Sequence record: OX638288
From: Escherichia phage UP19
Strand: one strand, 5' to 3'
Length of the DNA: 64,000 nt
Both the position numbers and the translations under genes were made by a program. The notes beneath the pieces were generated by a model. It was not told the origin of the DNA. It made no database searches and saw only the letters and a list, made by a program, of their open reading frames with translations. Shown here in pieces: positions 7,787 through 34,886 of the stretch (positions within the stretch are counted from its first letter, which is position 1; each line of letters opens with the position of its first letter).

Positions 7787-7811
7787 TGCTTTAAGAATAG
7801 CGTGTTATTAT
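7787..7811 (+). promoter_or_regulatory. candidate T4 middle promoter (MotA box TGCTTTA 7787-7793, -10 TATTAT 7806-7811) for gene 31
   Basis: MotA-box consensus TGCTTtA about 12 nt upstream of an A/T-rich -10. Confidence 0.4.
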
Positions 7812-7842
7812 TAACCTATCAACAAAACAACATGGATTAAAT

Positions 7843-8166
7843 ATGGAACTTCCTATTAAAGCGGTCGGAGAATATGTTATTCTCGTTTCCGAACCAAAAC
7901 AAGCTGGTGATGAAGAAACTACTGCATCTGGTATCGTTATTGGCAAACTTCATCAAGGTGAAATCCCTGAACTTTGTGAAATTTATTCTGTAGGACCTGA
8001 TGTCCCTGAAGGTTTTTGTGAAGTAGGTGATTTGACTCCACTTCCTGTTGGTAAGATTGCTAACGTGCCCCATCCGTTGGTTGCATTGGGTATTAAACAG
8101 CCTAAAGAAATTAAACAGAAATTCGTTACCTGTCACTATAAAGCTATTCCGTGTCTTTATAAGTGA
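7843..8166 (+). CDS. 31: GroES-like co-chaperonin for major capsid protein folding (gp31)
   Basis: 107 aa; ..[18 protein letters not shown].. and C-terminal ..[17 protein letters not shown] matching T4 gp31. Confidence 0.9.
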
Positions 8167-8174
8167 TATAAATA
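8167..8174 (+). promoter_or_regulatory. late promoter motif TATAAATA upstream of rIII
   Basis: Exact TATAAATA immediately after gene 31 stop. Confidence 0.45.
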
Positions 8175-8312
8175 ATAATATGGATTGGCTGCCGGACTAG
8201 TTAGTTAACCGGAGAATCCTAAGCGGTGGACTACAACTGAGAGACTTGCCGAAAGGAAGTGAAATTCAGAAGAACGTGTCCACCAATCTTTATCTCGAAT
8301 CGAGAATTTAAA

Positions 8313-8561
8313 ATGAACAAACATCTGAATCACGCTCTTGAACTGCAACGCAACGCTTGGAACAACGGTCACGAAAACTACGGCGCATCTATTGATGTTG
8401 AAGCCGAAGCACTGGAAATCCTGCGTTATTTCAAACATCTTAATCCGGCTCAGGCTACTCTGGCTGCTGAACTGGAAGCAAAAGATGAACTGAAATATGC
8501 TAAGCCTTTGGCTTCAGCAGCTCGTAAAGCAGTACGTCATTTTATTATTACCCTGAAGTAA
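8313..8561 (+). CDS. rIII: RIII lysis-inhibition accessory protein
   Basis: 82 aa from ATG 8313 (MNKHLNH..ELQRNAWNNGHENYGASIDVEAEALEILRYFKHL..) matching T4 RIII. Confidence 0.85.
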   Translation: MNKHLNHALELQRNAWNNGHENYGASIDVEAEALEILRYFKHLNPAQATLAAELEAKDELKYAKPLASAARKAVRHFIITLK

Positions 8562-8913
8562 AATCGAGGAGCCGTCGAACTGTCTGATTAATGATTTGCG
8601 AATCATTATAGTTTTAAGACCCCAGCAGTTTTACGGTGTACCTCTTGAATGTATTTTATAGCGGCAAGTGCATGCTACCCCGAGGTGATGGCCAATCGGG
8701 AGTACGCCTCAAGGCCTATATATCCATCAGTATATATCTTATCCTCGAGAAATCGAACCCGGAACCTTTAAGCTAACGGTGTGCAACAGATAAGAGCTAT
8801 GATGACGAGGTTTACGGTTATCCTGTCGTTAAATATCTAAAACCTATGTTCCCCTTGAGGGCTTGCGCAGGCAATGTCAATAAGTCCTGCATCCTAATTT
8901 AAGAGATTTAAAA
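8562..8913. other. 352-nt ORF-free region with several stem-loops; candidate structured RNA, regulatory region or decayed gene
   Basis: No ORF of 60 aa or more on either strand and frequent stops in all frames; largest non-coding gap in the window. Confidence 0.4.
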
Positions 8914-9075
8914 ATGGCTAAGAAAGAAGTTAAAGTAGTTGACGGAACCTCTAAACGCGCTGGTTACAAGCGTGCGTCTAACAAGCGTATCAATCAGGTA
9001 GTTGATAAGCTTCAAGCTCGTGCTCGTGCAGTATTGCGTGCAGATGCTGCTTGCTTCGGTAAAGTTATTGCATAA
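8914..9075 (+). CDS. hypothetical small basic protein (53 aa)
   Basis: ATG 8914, stop 9073-9075, immediately followed by a strong intrinsic terminator. Confidence 0.45.
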   Translation: MAKKEVKVVDGTSKRAGYKRASNKRINQVVDKLQARARAVLRADAACFGKVIA

Positions 9076-9080
9076 GTTAT

Positions 9081-9104
9081 GGGACTCTTCGGAGTCCCAT
9101 TTTT
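9081..9104 (+). terminator. rho-independent terminator (GGGACTC-TTCG-GAGTCCC + T-run)
   Basis: 7-bp perfect stem, TTCG loop, TTTTT at 9100-9104. Confidence 0.8.
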
Positions 9105-9129
9105 GTTTCTAAATCTTTAAAAAAAAAGG

Positions 9130-9161
9130 GTATACATCTCCGGTAGGCATGATACTATAGA
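9130..9161 (+). promoter_or_regulatory. early promoter-like element (GTATAC -35-like, TACTAT/TATAGA -10) preceded by an A-tract; cassette A
   Basis: A9 tract then GGTATACA..17 nt..TACTATAGA. Confidence 0.45.
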
Positions 9162-9202
9162 CATGTACCAAATAATACGAAAACAAACTGGAGAATAAAA
9201 TG
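9158..9202 (+). repeat. 45-nt leader repeat copy A (TAGACATGTACCAAATAATACGAAAACAAACTGGAGAATAAAATG)
   Basis: 44/45 identical to 9564-9608; ends in start codon of ORF 9200. Confidence 0.9.
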
Positions 9203-9532
9203 AAAACTGTAAACCTGAATGCATCTGTTAAAGCTAAATGTTTCAACGGTGAATATCAAGAAACCATGTGGGTCCTGACTGCAGTTGAAGGTGATATCAT
9301 CGAAGTTGAAACAACTGAAGGTATGGGTACTGATTTCACATTTACCATCGAGCTTCACAACTTCTTTACAGGTTGGATTTATGAACTGAAAACTGTAATT
9401 ACTGGTCGTATCGAAGAAAACAAAATTGGTGAATTCTATTACGTTAATGCCCGTACACGTGCTGAACGTCTGATTGCTCAGATGAAAAAAGTTGGTAAAC
9501 TTGATATGAAAAATTGGAATGTTGTGAAATAA
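9200..9532 (+). CDS. hypothetical protein
   Basis: 110-aa ORF behind leader copy A. Confidence 0.55.
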   Translation: MKTVNLNASVKAKCFNGEYQETMWVLTAVEGDIIEVETTEGMGTDFTFTIELHNFFTGWIYELKTVITGRIEENKIGEFYYVNARTRAERLIAQMKKVGKLDMKNWNVVK

Positions 9533-9535
9533 ATG

Positions 9536-9576
9536 TTTTACTTTGGTACAGGTTGTGTTATTATAGACCTGTACCA
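9536..9576 (+). promoter_or_regulatory. early promoter-like element (TTTTAC 9536-9541, TATTAT 9559-9564) with its -10 in the loop of an 8-bp inverted repeat (GGTACAGG 9546-9553 / CCTGTACC 9569-9576); cassette B
   Basis: Seen directly. Confidence 0.45.
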
Positions 9577-9608
9577 AATAATACGAAAACAAACTGGAGA
9601 ATAAAATG
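9564..9608 (+). repeat. 45-nt leader repeat copy B
   Basis: 44/45 identical to 9158-9202; ends in start codon of ORF 9606. Confidence 0.9.
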
Positions 9609-9971
9609 AACTACATCAACTTCGAACGTAAATATGTTTCTAACGGTAACGCTGGTTCTTCTGAAGTTATTTGTCTGTGGAAACACAACAACGGCACAGT
9701 GTGCGAAATCGAACAGTGCATGACTCCTAACTACGTTTATATGCGCTTTGAAAATGGTATCACGGTTTCAATCACTATGGAAGGTTCTACTTTTAAAATC
9801 GCTTTGGATGATGATTTCCGTCAACGTGATTTAGGCACCCATCCTTGCTGGAACGGTGATAATCGTAAGCTTCTGGTTAAAACCTGGATTCGTCACATCC
9901 TGAGCAACCGTGCTAAACCTGAACACCTGGAAGCAATCTTTGTTGTAGTTCTGAATGAATTTGATATCTAA
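9606..9971 (+). CDS. hypothetical protein
   Basis: 121-aa ORF behind leader copy B; unrelated in sequence to ORF 9200. Confidence 0.55.
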   Translation: MNYINFERKYVSNGNAGSSEVICLWKHNNGTVCEIEQCMTPNYVYMRFENGITVSITMEGSTFKIALDDDFRQRDLGTHPCWNGDNRKLLVKTWIRHILSNRAKPEHLEAIFVVVLNEFDI

Positions 9972-13804: not shown

Positions 13805-15892
13805 ATGACCGAACAATTGAATGAGGTGTTTGAGTCCGAAGGCACCCTGCCTACTGTAAACTTAAACCCAAAACTTAAAGTACCCCAGATTTGGAAGATT
13901 GGCGACGCCGAATCCCAATTAGTTGCTCGTATGGTATCTTATGCCTCTGAAGGCGATGCTATTAAACAGGTTAAATTAGGTGATAAATATGCCCACGTTA
14001 TTTTGATGAGTTTATCAGCTAAAGGTACTCCAGCCGAACTTAAAGGTGGATTAGGCCTTACTCCTATTGATGCTATTAATACCATTTTCGACGTAGTATT
14101 CGAACAAGTTAAAAAGCTTCGTATGGATGCTGTGATGTTCCGTTTTCCAACCAAGAAAATGAAAGGACAAGGACCTATTGTCCAACGGATTATCCAACGT
14201 TTGGTAGCACAGAAAACCGGTGGACGTTTTAAAGTAGTTCCAGCCATGTACCAATTTACCGGTAAACATACTTATATCCTAGTAGTGCGTAAACAAGCTG
14301 ATATCGAAGATATCAAAGGTATGCCTGGAATTAATGCCGAATTATATACTAAGGTAGATTCTGATGTTGGTGAAGTTTATATTTCTAAAAAAGAAGGCGC
14401 TCAGGTTACTAAAGAAACCGCTATTGCCGGCAGTATTGCTAAAGTTGAAGAACGTCGCACTGATAAAATGGTTATAACCAAGACTAAGATTTCTCGTCGT
14501 GCGATTGCGGCAAGCCAGTCATTAGAAGCAGACCGTAATGAAGGTGAATTATTTCAGAAATATGAACAAACTGCCAATGAGTTCAGTGCGCCTGCTACGG
14601 CGGAATTAATTCCACAAGCAGTCGAAGTTGAATTATCATTATCATCCGAAACAGCTAAGGATAAGCTGGCTACGGCTATTGATTTTAAAATTTATAATAC
14701 TATGGATGATTCATTTAAATTTGCGGATGAAGTTTCTTACGGTGATAAAATTAACTCTTCTTTAGAAAAATTTGTCAAAAAAATTAAAAATGAAAAAACC
14801 ACGTCAGTTAAAGCTTTAGCCGCCTTTGTTGAAGCTGCTAATGAAATCGCAGAATCTATTAAAAGTGATTGGTTTGAAGATTATAGAAAAGACAATTTCC
14901 ATTTGGAAAAAGAGATATTGAATGAAAACAGTGAAAGAGTATGGAAACAACGTAAGTCTTCATTCTTGTCTAAGATAATGTATACATACGCTATAGAATC
15001 AACTAGAGAAATTCTTAATATAACAACATCTCGAGACCCTAAACAATATACACTTGCAGAAAAACGAGCTATCAGAGAATACGCCTCTTCAGCTTATATT
15101 GATATTAACAATGTCCTTCTTGGCCGTTATAAACCGGGCTTTTATGAAGTTTTGGACGAAAGCGAAGTTAAACGTGCTATTGATGGAATGGATTCTGCCT
15201 TTAAAAATGGTGACCGTTTACCTGAAGGAATAATGGTTTATAGAGCACAATCTTTGCGCGCGCCTATCTACGAAGCATTAGTTAAAAATAAGGTATTCTA
15301 TTTTAGAAACTATGTTTCAACCTCATTGGCCCCAATCATTTTTGGTGGCTTTAAAGAGAATGCGGCTATTGGTCTTGCTTCCGATGATGTTCGAAAAGAA
15401 TTAAACATTGATAATAATGACGAAGGCGTTACCATCTCGGCTAGTCAAGTGCGTACACATATGTATGCGCCGGATCAAATCCGTGTTGATGTTGGCTGGG
15501 CTATTAGTGGCGCTCATAAGGTTAACGTGATTTATCCTGGCCAATTAAGCATGCATGCCAACGAAAAGGAAATAATTTTACCACGCGGGCTACTTGTAAA
15601 AATAGATAAAATCGTGGATGCATCAGCCAATACTGGTTCTGGGGCGGTGTCTAACAATAAATTTATTCAAGCTGAAGTTATGACATCAGATGAGCTTCAA
15701 GAATCTGTAGTGTATGATGGTGACGTACTAATGGAAACCGGCGAGTTGGTTGTGTATCAAGATGATTTCGATACTTCCGAAAGCCCTGTATCTTTTGATT
15801 CATTTGTTAAATCTACACGGTTTGATGTACTGCCTCTTTTGGCTTCATGCATAGACCTCTATGGCATCCCAGAAAAATTCATCCAAGGGTAA
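13805..15892 (+). CDS. alt: Alt-type ADP-ribosyltransferase, paralog 1 (virion-packaged, RNA-polymerase-modifying family)
   Basis: 695 aa; Alt-like N-terminus; C-terminal R-S-E ART signature (..YRAQS.. / ..VSTSL.. / ..EIILPRGL..). Confidence 0.9.
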   Translation: MTEQLNEVFESEGTLPTVNLNPKLKVPQIWKIGDAESQLVARMVSYASEGDAIKQVKLGDKYAHVILMSLSAKGTPAELKGGLGLTPIDAINTIFDVVFEQVKKLRMDAVMFRFPTKKMKGQGPIVQRIIQRLVAQKTGGRFKVVPAMYQFTGKHTYILVVRKQADIEDIKGMPGINAELYTKVDSDVGEVYISKKEGAQVTKETAIAGSIAKVEERRTDKMVITKTKISRRAIAASQSLEADRNEGELFQKYEQTANEFSAPATAELIPQAVEVELSLSSETAKDKLATAIDFKIYNTMDDSFKFADEVSYGDKINSSLEKFVKKIKNEKTTSVKALAAFVEAANEIAESIKSDWFEDYRKDNFHLEKEILNENSERVWKQRKSSFLSKIMYTYAIESTREILNITTSRDPKQYTLAEKRAIREYASSAYIDINNVLLGRYKPGFYEVLDESEVKRAIDGMDSAFKNGDRLPEGIMVYRAQSLRAPIYEALVKNKVFYFRNYVSTSLAPIIFGGFKENAAIGLASDDVRKELNIDNNDEGVTISASQVRTHMYAPDQIRVDVGWAISGAHKVNVIYPGQLSMHANEKEIILPRGLLVKIDKIVDASANTGSGAVSNNKFIQAEVMTSDELQESVVYDGDVLMETGELVVYQDDFDTSESPVSFDSFVKSTRFDVLPLLASCIDLYGIPEKFIQG

Positions 15893-15895
15893 ATA

Positions 15896-18019
15896 ATGGA
15901 AAATTTAAACGAGGTTTTTGATAGTGATTCCGCTAAAAACTATCCAGTAACAAATCTTAAACCAGGTTCCGGTATTCCACAGATTTTCTCTATCCAAGCA
16001 CCAGGTAATGATAATCTGGTTGCTCGTATGGTATCTTATGCGTCTCAAGGAGACGCTATTAAAATGGTTAAGCCTGGCGACAAATACGTTCATGTTATTT
16101 TGATGAGTTTGTCTAGCAAGGGTGCTCCGGCTGAACTCAAAGGTGGCCTTGGTTCTGACCCACTTGGTACACTGAATACTATTTTCGATACTGTATACGA
16201 ACAAGTAAACAAACTTAAAATGGATGCAGTTTTGTTCCGTTTCCCTACCAAGAAAATGAAAGGTAAGGGTCCTACCGTTCAGCGTGTATTAGCTCGTTTG
16301 GTGATGGCACGTACCGGTGGTAAGTTTAAAGTTGTCGATGATATGTTCCAGTTTAGTGGTAAACATACATACGTTCTTTTAGTACGTCGTGGTTCTAATA
16401 TCGAAGATATCAAGGGTATGCCTGAAATTGATGCCGATCTTTATACCAAGGTTGAGTCTAAAGTTGGCGAAGTTTATGTTTCTAAGAAAACAGGCCAGGC
16501 CGTAAGTAAGGTCGAAGCCGTAGCGGCATCTATCGCCCAGGTTGAAGAAAAACGTACCGATAAGGCTGTCATCTCTCGTACTAAGATTTCCCGTCGTATG
16601 GCTGCAGCAGCGCAGTATTCTACTTCCGAACCTGAAACTTTATCCCCTAAAGAATTGCAGGTTTATAATGAGTTTGAAGCTTCTGTACCTGTTCATTCGG
16701 CTGAAGGTCCTGAGAACGAAGGTATTGAACAGATTAGCCAGAACTTTAAAAAAGGTGCTATTACTAAAATGCGTCAGGCCTCTCAGTTTAAATCTAAGAG
16801 TGAGGACCTTGCCAACTTTAGATACACCATTGCTCTCACGCACGCTTTAATGACTGATAGTAAATTTAAACTAAATTATGCTAATAGAGATAAACAAGGG
16901 TTTGAAATTTACTCTAATAATATGGCATTTTTTAATACAGAAGTCGATAGACTTTTAAGTGGCCTTTCTCAAATCAATACTACCAATAGTCTGGATATTA
17001 TTAAGAGAATTGTTAATAACCTGAGCGCCCGTTTTCAGGGATCTCCTTCAGAGAAAGCATCCCGAATTGCTTTCGCTATGGAAGCCGTTTATAAACTGAT
17101 TAACGATTCTATTGGCGATGCGTATGCTTATTCAGGTGAGCTCATTAAACCTAAGGGCTTGACTAAAGACGAAAGCAATGCTATTATTGAATATTGCGCA
17201 GCTGAATATGCTCCTATGAACTTATTCCTTTTAGGTAAACCTGAATCCGAAAACAATACAACGGCTATTAAATTGATTAAGGATTTAGACTCAGCATTTA
17301 CTAAGGGTATTAAACTCCCTAAGGGTACTATTTTGTATCGTGGTCAGGATTTGCCATACAAAATTCTGCGTCATAATATCGATAACAAAACATTTTACTT
17401 TAAGAACTTTGTGTCAGCCTCATTAAAGCCTAACATCTTTGGTGAATTCGGTAAAAATTATATGGCCCTCGACAACCAAGCCGTTTTTGTTGGTGGTGAA
17501 GGTTCTTTATCCTCCGCTGATGAGTTGTTTAAATTGGCTAGTGGTAGTTCATCTGATGTGGGTGAAGTCGATGACGAAGAGGTAGAATGGGAAGAAGACG
17601 AGTTTGGTAATCCAATTGCACCTGAAGGCCCTGCAGACAGGATTGCTGAAATCGGTATGGTTATTCGAGGTGCTGAAGCAGTTAAAGTTATCGCTCCTGG
17701 CGACCTTACAGAATATGCTGAAGAAGCAGAAATTATCCTTCCGCGTGGATTATTGATGAAGGTTGATAAAGTAGCGGCTTTTGCTATGAATGATAGGGTA
17801 TCTCACAAATACCTTATGGAAGCTACAGTGACGTCTCCTTCAGAACTCAGTGAATCCGTTTACGATGGCGACCATCTGATGGAAACTGGCGAAGTTAAAT
17901 TGATGAATGGGTTTAAAGAATTCCTAGTTTCAGAATCTGTTTCAGAAAGTAATGAGGCTATGGAAATCCTTGCTGCATCTTTGGACATCTCTTCTTTATC
18001 AAATAAATTCAAAATGTAG
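15896..18019 (+). CDS. Alt-type ADP-ribosyltransferase, paralog 2
   Basis: 707 aa; N-terminal 150 aa closely similar to paralog 1, divergent middle, R-S-E signature retained (..YRGQD.. / ..VSASL.. / ..EIILPRGL..). Confidence 0.85.
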   Translation: MENLNEVFDSDSAKNYPVTNLKPGSGIPQIFSIQAPGNDNLVARMVSYASQGDAIKMVKPGDKYVHVILMSLSSKGAPAELKGGLGSDPLGTLNTIFDTVYEQVNKLKMDAVLFRFPTKKMKGKGPTVQRVLARLVMARTGGKFKVVDDMFQFSGKHTYVLLVRRGSNIEDIKGMPEIDADLYTKVESKVGEVYVSKKTGQAVSKVEAVAASIAQVEEKRTDKAVISRTKISRRMAAAAQYSTSEPETLSPKELQVYNEFEASVPVHSAEGPENEGIEQISQNFKKGAITKMRQASQFKSKSEDLANFRYTIALTHALMTDSKFKLNYANRDKQGFEIYSNNMAFFNTEVDRLLSGLSQINTTNSLDIIKRIVNNLSARFQGSPSEKASRIAFAMEAVYKLINDSIGDAYAYSGELIKPKGLTKDESNAIIEYCAAEYAPMNLFLLGKPESENNTTAIKLIKDLDSAFTKGIKLPKGTILYRGQDLPYKILRHNIDNKTFYFKNFVSASLKPNIFGEFGKNYMALDNQAVFVGGEGSLSSADELFKLASGSSSDVGEVDDEEVEWEEDEFGNPIAPEGPADRIAEIGMVIRGAEAVKVIAPGDLTEYAEEAEIILPRGLLMKVDKVAAFAMNDRVSHKYLMEATVTSPSELSESVYDGDHLMETGEVKLMNGFKEFLVSESVSESNEAMEILAASLDISSLSNKFKM

Positions 18020-18048
18020 TTTACAACACCACAAGGATGTGGTACTAT
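18019..18048 (+). promoter_or_regulatory. T4-type early promoter (GTTTAC 18019-18024, TACTAT 18043-18048) with hairpin ACCACA-AGGA-TGTGGT (18028-18043) in the spacer
   Basis: Seen directly; leader ..ACAAACATGAGGAG..ATG (18077). Confidence 0.5.
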
Positions 18049-18076
18049 TACCTTACACAAACATGAGGAGAACATT

Positions 18077-26254: not shown

Positions 26255-26422
26255 ATGTCAGATAAGATTTGCGTTGTCTGTAAAACTCCAATCGATGCTG
26301 CATTGGTTGTTGAAACAGAAAAAGGTCCGGTTCATCCGGGTTCATGTTATAATTACGTTCAAAGCCTGCCTGTTACGGAAAACACTGAAGAACAGCTGAA
26401 CGAAACCCAATTACTACTTTAG
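26255..26422 (+). CDS. hypothetical 55-aa Cys-containing protein (uvsY.-2-like position)
   Basis: SD AGGAG 7 nt upstream of ATG 26255; CVVC...C motif suggests a zinc ribbon; ends at terminator. Confidence 0.45.
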   Translation: MSDKICVVCKTPIDAALVVETEKGPVHPGSCYNYVQSLPVTENTEEQLNETQLLL

Positions 26423-26452
26423 TCTAGTGTGTATAGCCATTTTATGGTTATT

Positions 26453-26480
26453 GGCCCTTCCGAAAGGTTGGGCCTTTTTT
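26453..26480. terminator. bidirectional terminator hairpin (GGCCC..GGGCC) + T6 between converging uvsY-side and uvsW-side transcripts
   Basis: GC stem-loop followed by TTTTTT on the plus strand and A/T-rich on the minus strand. Confidence 0.65.
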
Positions 26481-26483
26481 GTT

Positions 26484-34827: not shown

Positions 34828-34860
34828 GTTTACAGCAAGGTTCCCACGTGTTACTATAGT
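34828..34860 (+). promoter_or_regulatory. T4-type early promoter (GTTTAC 34828-34833, TACTATAGT 34852-34860)
   Basis: Same architecture and leader (..AAAACATGAGGAG..ATG) as cassettes at 2113, 5863 and 18019. Confidence 0.5.
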
Positions 34861-34886
34861 CCTATCAAAACATGAGGAGATTAAAA

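Follow-up and report, generated by a model that had tools for sequence, protein, structure and literature searches.

A previously undescribed structured RNA family in T4-type phages

Between genes rIII and 30.9 of Escherichia phage UP19 we identified a 135-nt element, hereafter the core, whose relatives fall into two clades, one at this locus (clade 1) and one between uvsY.-2 and uvsW.1 (clade 2). Its fold is conserved, strand-specific, constrained, non-coding, modular and dispensable, and occurs at two loci. We are highly confident that positions 8662-8796 are a functional structured RNA. The core is an RNA family previously undescribed in Rfam 15 or the searchable literature, where "new" refers to an RNA family without a detectable relative and not to an unprecedented mechanism. 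Based on comparative sequence analysis, we propose, with a probability of roughly 60%, that it is an autonomous, partner-binding non-coding RNA rather than a cis regulator.

Genomic setting and mosaic structure of the gap

The analysed DNA is a stretch of 64,000 nucleotides from phage UP19 (sequence record OX638288; hereafter the window), a T4-type Dhakavirus with 99.5% identity to Escherichia phage JS10 and about 97% to JS98. On the plus strand the genes run cd, 31.2, 31.1, 31 (7843-8166) and rIII, followed by the gap that is the subject of this study, gene 30.9 and an intrinsic terminator:

8167-8174, plus strand: T4-type late-promoter consensus TATAAATA, upstream of rIII (motif search)
8313-8561, plus strand: gene rIII, 82 aa, lysis-inhibition accessory protein (ORF list, JS10 annotation at 99.5% identity, protein alignment)
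8562-8913: the gap, 352 nt between rIII and gene 30.9
8914-9075, plus strand: gene 30.9, 53 aa, basic, phrog_1427, a family with no assigned function (ORF list)
9079-9100, plus strand: intrinsic terminator, the first one 3' of the gap (terminator scan)

The ORF list shows 8562-8913 to be free, on both strands, of ORFs reaching 60 aa. A preliminary description of the window had called the gap its longest ORF-free stretch, and our own ORF scan of the 64 kb agrees: the longest run without an ORF of at least 60 aa is 8562-9154 (593 nt, gene 30.9 included), the next longest reaching only 293 nt. The same description saw no obvious promoter for the 53-aa ORF, and a consensus scan likewise found no sigma-70 promoter in the gap, while a terminator scan found no intrinsic terminator inside it, the first lying at 9079. 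Its treatment of the 352 nt as one unit has to be given up, as blastn with the whole gap matched 996 phage records piecewise, and the gap is instead a three-part mosaic of independently exchangeable modules, comprising the rIII 3' tail (8562-8661), the core (8662-8796) and the leader of gene 30.9 (8797-8913). In most Tequatrovirus genomes, T4 included, the two ends of the gap (8562-8651 and 8801-8913) have about 94% identity. The two flanking segments contain the following features:

8562-8661, plus strand: 5' segment, rIII 3' tail, about 94% identical in Tequatrovirus including T4
8566-8571, plus strand: GAGGAG motif in the rIII 3' tail
8589-8596/8601-8608, plus strand: 8-bp hairpin with UGCG loop, then a U-run, in the rIII 3' tail
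8630-8635 and 8652-8657, plus strand: early-promoter-like element, TTTACG, 16 nt, TATTTT, ending 4 nt before the core (read by eye)
8797-8913, plus strand: 3' segment, structured leader of gene 30.9, conserved in T4
8801-8845, plus strand: module P, in the 30.9 leader
8851-8861, plus strand: hairpin H, CCC-UUGA-GGG, in the 30.9 leader
8867-8871/8886-8890, plus strand: stem GCAGG/CCUGC, in the 30.9 leader
8901-8906, plus strand: SD-like AAGAGA preceding the gene 30.9 start

The hairpin in the rIII tail shows a compensating change in one relative, where it reads UAUCGAUU-UACG-AAUCGGUA. The RegB nuclease cuts GGAG (PMC9409239), and cleavage at the GGAG within GAGGAG (8566-8571) is a conjecture of ours. 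The early-promoter-like TTTACG-16-TATTTT was not called by the consensus scan and, being inconsistent across clade 1, is not relied on here. In sequence it resembles the repeated promoters of the window at 9150-9204 and 9556-9610.

In the 30.9 leader, the GCAGG/CCTGC stem of the preliminary description is present (8867-8871/8886-8890) and has compensatory changes in related phages. Hairpin H and a variable stem before the 30.9 start recur across genera, and the stems covary when read by eye (GGGAGC/GCUCCC, GGCGA/UCGCC, GUGGAG/CUCCAC, GGGAAC/GUUCC). The earlier suggestion of a regulatory or processing region is plausible for this conserved, structured 3' third of the gap, and the 30.9 leader may have a regulatory role. 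The modules flanking the core are single copy in the window.

A conserved and covarying fold

The core comprises two helical arms linked by a loop-loop contact and a three-way junction:

8662-8796, plus strand: core structured RNA, 135 nt, one copy in the window
8663-8665/8714-8716, plus strand: P0, GGC/GCC, enclosing P1 via a conserved internal loop AAGUGCAU/CUCAAG
8674-8683/8696-8707, plus strand: P1, 10 bp, with A8701 and C8705 bulged and loop L1 at 8684-8695
8717-8723/8730-8736, plus strand: P2 hairpin, 7 bp, its 6-nt loop being L2
8686-8691/8724-8729, plus strand: loop-loop (kissing) pairing, 6 bp, L1 UGAUGG with L2 CCAUCA
8737-8743/8789-8795, plus strand: P3 long-range helix, 7 bp, UCUUAUC/GAUAAGA, closing the three-way junction with P4 and P5
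8745-8756, plus strand: P4 hairpin, 4 bp, UCGA-GAAA-UCGA
8757-8761/8777-8782, plus strand: P5, 5 bp, ACCCG/CGG(U)GU, with a 15-nt loop containing invariant GGA..C and GCUAAC

This structure was first derived by eye, and RNAalifold then gave the same helices independently. Distinct versions of the core were gathered stepwise (17, 20, then 25), and alignments A6 and A7 were fitted to a covariance model, which scores the core at 167.6 bits as its sole match in the 64 kb. In a MAFFT alignment 98.9% of the cells are paired and 18 of 39 pairs have changed on both sides, compared with a mean of 5.7 in shuffles of these related sequences, made without kinship correction, none of 500 of which reached the observed count; sliding the partners reduces pairing to 28-44%. 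The model-fitted alignment of clade 1 gives 99.8% paired cells (30-43% in the slid controls) and both-side changes at 18 of 42 pairs (shuffle mean 5.4; 0/500 reach), and across both clades, with 25 sequences, 98.3% of the cells are paired and 23 of 36 pairs have changed on both sides, again a count that no shuffle out of 500 reached. Compensatory changes are far above the shuffled and slid controls. Sequence and structure are both conserved in related phages, contrary to the refuting condition set by the preliminary description, and of the options it named there is strong support for a small or structured RNA in the central 135 nt.

Covariation is spread over the helices. P1 has both-side changes at eight of its ten pairs and is 98% paired; its inner half (8679-8683/8696-8700) is the CCCGA/TCGGG stem of the preliminary description, which is replaced in related phages by CUCUA/UAGAG, CGGAU/AUCCG or CCGAU/AUCGG. 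Both sides have changed at four of seven pairs in P2 and at five of seven in P3, the latter being a wholly different helix in clade 2 (UUCGUG/CACGAA). All four pairs of P4 covary, as do two of the five in P5 (A-U to U-A in Cronus, C-G to U-A in clade 2). P0 was predicted by RNAalifold and is invariant in all 25 sequences, and therefore has no covariation support. The kissing pairing is 100% paired in clade 1, where three of its six pairs covary; across both clades its sequence takes six forms, and all 13 distinct loop combinations retain 6-7 bp (CGAUGG/CCAUCG, CUAUGG/CCAUAG, CAAUGA/UCAUUG, UGCAUU/AAUGCA and UUGUAUU/AAUACAA beside the pairing of the window).

Since P0, P2 and P3 abut without linkers, they could stack on each other. 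P1, at 10 bp, is as long as P0 and P2 together, which would let L1 reach L2 within one molecule; alternatively, the loops may pair between molecules. A tetraloop-receptor contact of the P4 GAAA loop was considered and dropped: although most clade-1 members have a GNRA loop here, others have UAAA or AUAAUU, and in clade 2 the loop is U-rich, so that such a contact is not essential. Extra long-range pairings of the 5' tail with GCAAC or with the L5 loop, tried by eye, are unsupported by the variants.

The window and Klebsiella phage 311F differ by six substitutions in the core, which make up three compensating pairs. G.U pairs in the core helices occur on the plus strand only, which indicates that the RNA has the sense of the neighbouring genes. 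Of the 135 positions 48 are invariant, mostly unpaired ones (GGCAAG.GCAUG, GGCCUA, CC.GGA, GCUAAC.GUG.GCAAC). Measured against shuffles, the core has no significant folding energy on either strand (z = -0.88 on the plus, +0.04 on the minus strand), so thermodynamics alone would miss the core and the case rests on comparison. Identity of the core to the window is 91-96% at the nucleotide level where rIII has 63-77% and 30.9 has 66-73%. Of the copies of the core, 159, found across Tequatrovirus, Dhakavirus and Gaprivervirus, are at least 99% identical; such near-identical copies in different genera imply that the conservation reflects recent horizontal exchange in part, beside constraint.

Non-coding nature and search for known families

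A 40-aa frame (8649-8771) runs through most of the core, and the region might be taken for a small protein gene or a decayed one, the latter an option of the preliminary description. Near-identical copies keep this frame open, and hypothetical proteins are annotated here in several GenBank records, one of 58 aa in some of them. However, it contains two to four stops in Muldoon, PS2-like phages, Cronus, EcL8g and EcS1, indels of 1-2 nt shift it, and a frame shift separates the window from UPEC01; in divergent members every reading frame is interrupted by stops, so that there is no family-wide open frame. PHROG and Pfam gave no protein family match for the region, T4 and other phages have no gene here, and the substitutions fit helices, not codons. 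We give a coding or pseudogene origin next to no credence.

The Rfam scan recognised no family: none of the 4227 covariance models of Rfam 15 had a match at E<=10 in 7800-9400 or reached its gathering score anywhere in the window, and on five homologous loci from both clades the scan returned two chance-level matches (E 0.36 and 0.45), both located elsewhere in the loci. ARAGORN found 0 tRNA or tmRNA genes in the 64-kb window, and the P3-P4-P5 three-way junction, read from its sequence, has neither a T arm nor a CCA end. The hallmark of Hfq-type sRNAs, a terminator with a U-tail, is absent, none occurring in the window until 9079. A text search of the literature, exact sequence strings included, found no description of the core.

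Distribution and cassette behaviour

The core is carried by 403 phage records and annotated as RNA in none of them. Its carriers are T4-type phages (Straboviridae) infecting Enterobacterales. In phages of Klebsiella, Enterobacter, Serratia, Erwinia and Edwardsiella the core alone is alignable at 91-96% identity, its flanks being unalignable, and it always lies between rIII and 30.9. Throughout the clade-1 genomes it is on the same strand as 30.9 and 73-185 nt upstream of it.

Presence or absence of the core is clean within Tequatrovirus, Dhakavirus and Slopekvirus. It is cleanly missing from T4, RB51 and many others, in which CTTGAATGT runs straight into GAATGATGACG; this slot is empty in T4 and filled by a different module of about 46 nt (X) in core-less Dhakaviruses and some Tequatroviruses. 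Among IMG/VR loci with rIII, 15 of 34 have the core and 19 of 34 have none, the latter including Bp7-like Dhakaviruses with a 98% identical RIII. The order of the core and the other small modules differs between genera, and Jiaodavirus has module P upstream of the core, not downstream. Relatives without the core (T4, Bp7-like phages) are viable, which means that the core is dispensable under some conditions.

A scan of IMG/VR with the pattern CGGCAAGNGCATGNNAC was too loose, giving 120 mostly chance loci. With a gapped pattern followed by nhmmer on genome and metagenome contigs, there were 0 true copies in 120 bacterial or archaeal loci, among the matches listed, and nhmmer on 413 pattern loci gave at least nine true metagenome matches, all near-identical to known copies. 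A blastn search for a host origin gave no match among 5,426 E. coli genomes.

The sharp junctions between presence and absence, the similar short sequences that flank the slot (TTTACGGTGTACCT at 8630, TTTACGGTTATCCT at 8812) and the 100% identical copies in different genera would suit conservation at the DNA level, such as a hotspot of recombination or homing, a signal for replication or packaging or a protein-binding site, or a neutral recent spread. Dozens of helix-keeping double substitutions, strand-specific G.U pairs and a covarying loop-loop contact, maintained down to about 55% identity, make this very improbable, and no endonuclease or other mobility gene accompanies the core. We regard explanations at the DNA level and by coding as effectively excluded.

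A second locus

A partial blast match led to a divergent full-length homologue in Yersinia phage JC221 (77.5 bits, E ~4e-19), which lies away from rIII, between uvsY.-2 and the convergent uvsW.1/uvsW. About 20 Slopekvirus and Pseudotevenvirus genomes carry the same divergent version at the same uvsY.-2|uvsW.1 locus (65-78 bits), a locus that is short and empty in the phage of the window and in T4. All helices of these clade-2 copies have drifted yet remain paired (P3 UUCGUG/CACGAA, P5 ACCUG/CAG(U)GU, kissing pairing UGCAUU/AAUGCA). Covariance model R2 found no copies in Aeromonas-type rIII loci, in phi92-type loci or in 20 Tevenvirinae uvsY loci.

A late-promoter-like (T/C/A)(A/G)TAAATA precedes the core in five of five clade-2 copies examined, with a predicted start 3-6 nt before GGGCAAG. 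On the 3' side there are further non-coding modules and then a bidirectional terminator, 170-390 nt beyond the core, and no same-strand gene. This arrangement would place the core of Slopekvirus and Pseudotevenvirus at the 5' end of a separate late transcript that encodes no protein. The locus is polymorphic, as phiEap-3 has the core and KP15-like genomes keep the promoter and the downstream modules without it.

Transcription and relation to gene 30.9

T4 uses early, middle and late promoters for rIII (PMC9409239). The late-promoter sequence TATAAATA is also found in T4, and the copy at 8167 is the nearest candidate late promoter for rIII and the core. Given the several classes of rIII promoter, TATAAATA at 8167 and the lack of a terminator before 9079, the core is most likely co-transcribed with rIII throughout infection, and the terminator at 9079-9100 probably ends an rIII-RNA-30.9 transcription unit. 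No terminator belongs to the core itself, and directly before it the clade-1 genomes share no consistent promoter; the RNA may therefore exist only as part of an mRNA, acting in cis on stability or translation.

Side-by-side helices clamped by kissing loops, with variable helices and invariant junctions, are the architecture of the purine and lysine riboswitches. The core resembles these aptamers in its covarying kissing contact and in having a gene downstream on the same strand, and as a conserved aptamer-like RNA with covarying helices and invariant junction and loop nucleotides it has the features expected of a riboswitch sensor. It could thus be a cis riboswitch or a protein-binding leader that senses a ligand and adjusts translation, stability or read-through of gene 30.9 and its operon, a reading compatible with its place in all clade-1 genomes, where it precedes 30.9 by 73-185 nt on the coding strand, with parallel helices clamped by a loop-loop contact next to invariant junction bases, with the small, very basic gp30.9 and with an alternative pairing, read from the sequence, that the 3' strand of P3 (GAUAAG) could form with GGUUAUC of module P. 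However, unlike those riboswitches the core has no Rfam match and no adjoining platform, be it a terminator/antiterminator or a structure sequestering the SD sequence. Both the spacing to 30.9 and the modules in between vary without restriction, Jiaodavirus has module P on the upstream side of the core, and many phages, T4 among them, retain 30.9 with its leader although they lack the core. Downstream of the clade-2 copies there are non-coding modules and a bidirectional terminator, and no gene on the same strand. This clade-2 setting in particular, together with the variable spacing and the missing platform, weakens the cis-riboswitch reading, which we consider unlikely.

Self-cleaving ribozymes are typically compact, pseudoknotted RNAs that have invariant junctions and lie between phage genes. 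A new ribozyme or processing signal could separate the rIII and 30.9 cistrons or set the ends of a late non-coding RNA, and the sharp conserved 5' boundary (G)GGCAAG and the 3' boundary of the core could be processing sites, with GGAG, the RegB target (PMC9409239), nearby at 8566-8571. Against this, there is no match to a Rfam 15 ribozyme at E<=10, 135 nt exceeds most small ribozymes, and the sequence showed no recognisable catalytic-core signature. In clade 2 the predicted late-promoter start falls at the 5' boundary and explains it without cleavage. We regard a catalytic or processing role as quite improbable.

Proposed role and comparison with known systems

We propose that the core would act as an autonomous, tertiary-structured non-coding RNA in which the P0-P1 arm and P2, paired through their loops, are joined to the P3-P4-P5 junction. 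In this phage it would most likely be made within the rIII transcript, and its invariant junctions and loops would bind a conserved partner, which may be a host or phage protein, an RNA, a small molecule or other copies of the core. Such an RNA would not be a cis controller of gene 30.9, and would behave as an accessory cassette, which phages acquire or lose, replace by other small RNA modules and pass to one another during co-infection.

Cassettes of another kind, PeSL (promoter-early stem-loop) elements, were reportedly found in the hyperplastic regions of T4-type phages by Arbiol et al. in 2010. They share with the core region a cassette-like modularity in which neighbouring genomes differ by whole modules. 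PeSLs, however, are short repeats of a promoter and a hairpin, many to a genome, whereas the core is a 135-nt multi-helix RNA, conserved in its RNA structure, that, like its flanking modules, is single copy in the window. Repeated promoter units of PeSL type lie directly downstream in the window (9150-9204 and 9556-9610).

In phi29 pRNA, ROOL and GOLLD, complementary loops pair between molecules and produce rings or cages. These are, like the core, phage-associated structured RNAs with complementary covarying loops. They have no sequence or model similarity to it, and the core is much smaller than ROOL or GOLLD; we know of no RNA requirement in T4-type packaging. ROOL and GOLLD are described as multimeric phage-associated RNAs (10.1101/2024.12.08.627333).

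T4-like cyanophages have orphan RNA motifs, among them manA and wcaG (Weinberg et al. 2010, PMC2864571). They resemble the core in being structured, in having no assigned function and in having been found by comparative genomics in T4-like phages; they differ in host range and structure and are in Rfam, where the core has no match. The stable T4 RNAs rnaC (70908-71046) and rnaD (71053-71171), also called species 1 and 2 RNAs, are likewise small (119-139 nt), non-coding, without an assigned function and located between genes on the coding strand. Unlike the core, they belong to the tRNA-cluster locus, and T4 has both of them without the core; cmsearch with filters off gave no match to either, the best score in the region being 6.6 bits and lying elsewhere.

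Significance

Few viruses have been studied as thoroughly as the T4-type phages, which are also in wide therapeutic use against E. coli, Klebsiella and Enterobacter, and yet in more than 400 of their deposited genomes the core is unannotated or mis-annotated as hypothetical proteins. The likely reason that it was overlooked is that the reference phage T4 does not have it. Its comparative support, covarying loop-loop contact included, is on a par with that of validated riboswitches and ribozymes, and this predicts a specific molecular partner or activity. Dispensability, patchy distribution and cross-genus exchange are together the usual signature of host-interaction or counter-defence functions, of which RNA-based examples are, to our knowledge, still rare. 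Natural variants that differ by the core cassette already exist (JS10/JS98 vs Bp7/IME281; phiEap-3 vs KP15).

The neighbouring modules suggest that T4-type phages contain unexplored intergenic "RNA islands". As a speculative possibility, the core and modules X, Y, Z, W, H and P might mark hypervariable "RNA cassette islands" at rIII|30.9 and uvsY.-2|uvsW.1, with the core as the founding member of a new class of trans-acting phage non-coding RNAs that would serve as a decoy or sponge for a host immune factor, an RNA-processing factor or an immune signal, or would self-assemble via intermolecular loops. If true, these RNA islands would be the RNA counterpart of the accessory-gene islands with counter-defence proteins.

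Additional RNA-like modules

Phages without the structured RNA core in the gap between rIII and gene 30.9 often carry an alternative module of ~46 nt, module X (sequence ACUAUCACGCGUCAGAAAAAGGUUAUCUGUCUAAGUCGUGGUUGGU), the outer stem of which covaries (AUCACG/CGUGGU versus GCUCUA/UAGAGC). In T4 and RB51 the slot is empty. We located module X in the following compared phage loci:

L141-L143, L145, L146, L147 and L149: module X, in the slot equivalent to window 8652-8800
L155, L159 and L168: module X, directly upstream of 30.9

In several GenBank records (those under database hits H26, H27, H38, H58, H71 and H73), the gap between rIII and 30.9 is assigned to a '1,4-alpha-glucan (glycogen) branching enzyme, GH-13-type' or to short hypothetical proteins, labels that look like pipeline artefacts over non-coding RNA.

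The second locus of the core, between uvsY.-2 and uvsW.1, holds a non-coding island in JC221, Slopekvirus and Pseudotevenvirus:

L417, 1100-1935; L418-L421; L423-L433: non-coding island, uvsY.-2|uvsW.1 gap

This island spans 300-800 nt, from a late-promoter-like TATAAATA to a bidirectional terminator, and is built of interchangeable conserved modules, namely the core, hairpin H, module Z and module W, none of which matches Rfam. Module Z (~120 nt) has 28 pairs, five of them with compensating changes (RNAalifold, four sequences), and module W (~130 nt) occurs in JC221 and RB16-like phages. The second-longest stretch of the window free of ORFs of at least 60 aa, 26256-26483, contains the uvsY.-2 homolog (58 aa) together with a bidirectional terminator (GGCCCTTCCGAAAGGTTGGGCC). 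In UP19, therefore, the locus at which Slopekvirus and Pseudotevenvirus carry the core is short and empty.

A second conserved RNA-like module besides the core, module Y, was observed at these sites:

Window 8223-8290: module Y, gene 31|rIII gap
L004, about 2690-2745: module Y
L026: module Y, before 30.9
L029 (T4): module Y, 31|rIII gap

In its layout, a closing stem surrounds UACAAC, variable hairpins and then GAAGAACGU, and a start codon lies directly downstream. The closing stem covaries, reading GGUGGAC/GUCCACC in the window versus GGUAGUC/GACUACC in T4 and GGCGA/UCGCC in Cronus; in Jiaodavirus, where the module precedes 30.9, it is GGGAGC/GCUCCC. Module Y has no match in Rfam and may be a translational leader.

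Repeats elsewhere in the window

Successive small ORFs downstream of 30.9 are preceded by repeated promoter-plus-leader units (95% identity across 55 nt, 3′ end GGAGAATAAAATG), resembling the promoter-early stem-loop cassettes described for T4-type hyperplastic regions.

9150-9204 and 9556-9610; also 2132-2164, 18039-18071 and 34848-34880: promoter-plus-leader units
13922-14398 and 16019-16495: diverged tandem duplication (~480 nt, 71-83% identity, spacing 2097 nt), presumably reflecting paralogous genes

A T4-type segment in phi92

L415 (Escherichia phage phi92, 53526-53823); also L169 and L170: rIII|30.9-type segment

Phage phi92, which is not T4-type, carries a T4-type rIII|30.9 intergenic segment within its tRNA cluster. 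This segment, annotated as 'putative rIII', is the empty-slot version, and its fusion to the 28 C-terminal codons of rIII lies at the start codon of 30.9; it is a rearranged, horizontally acquired fragment.
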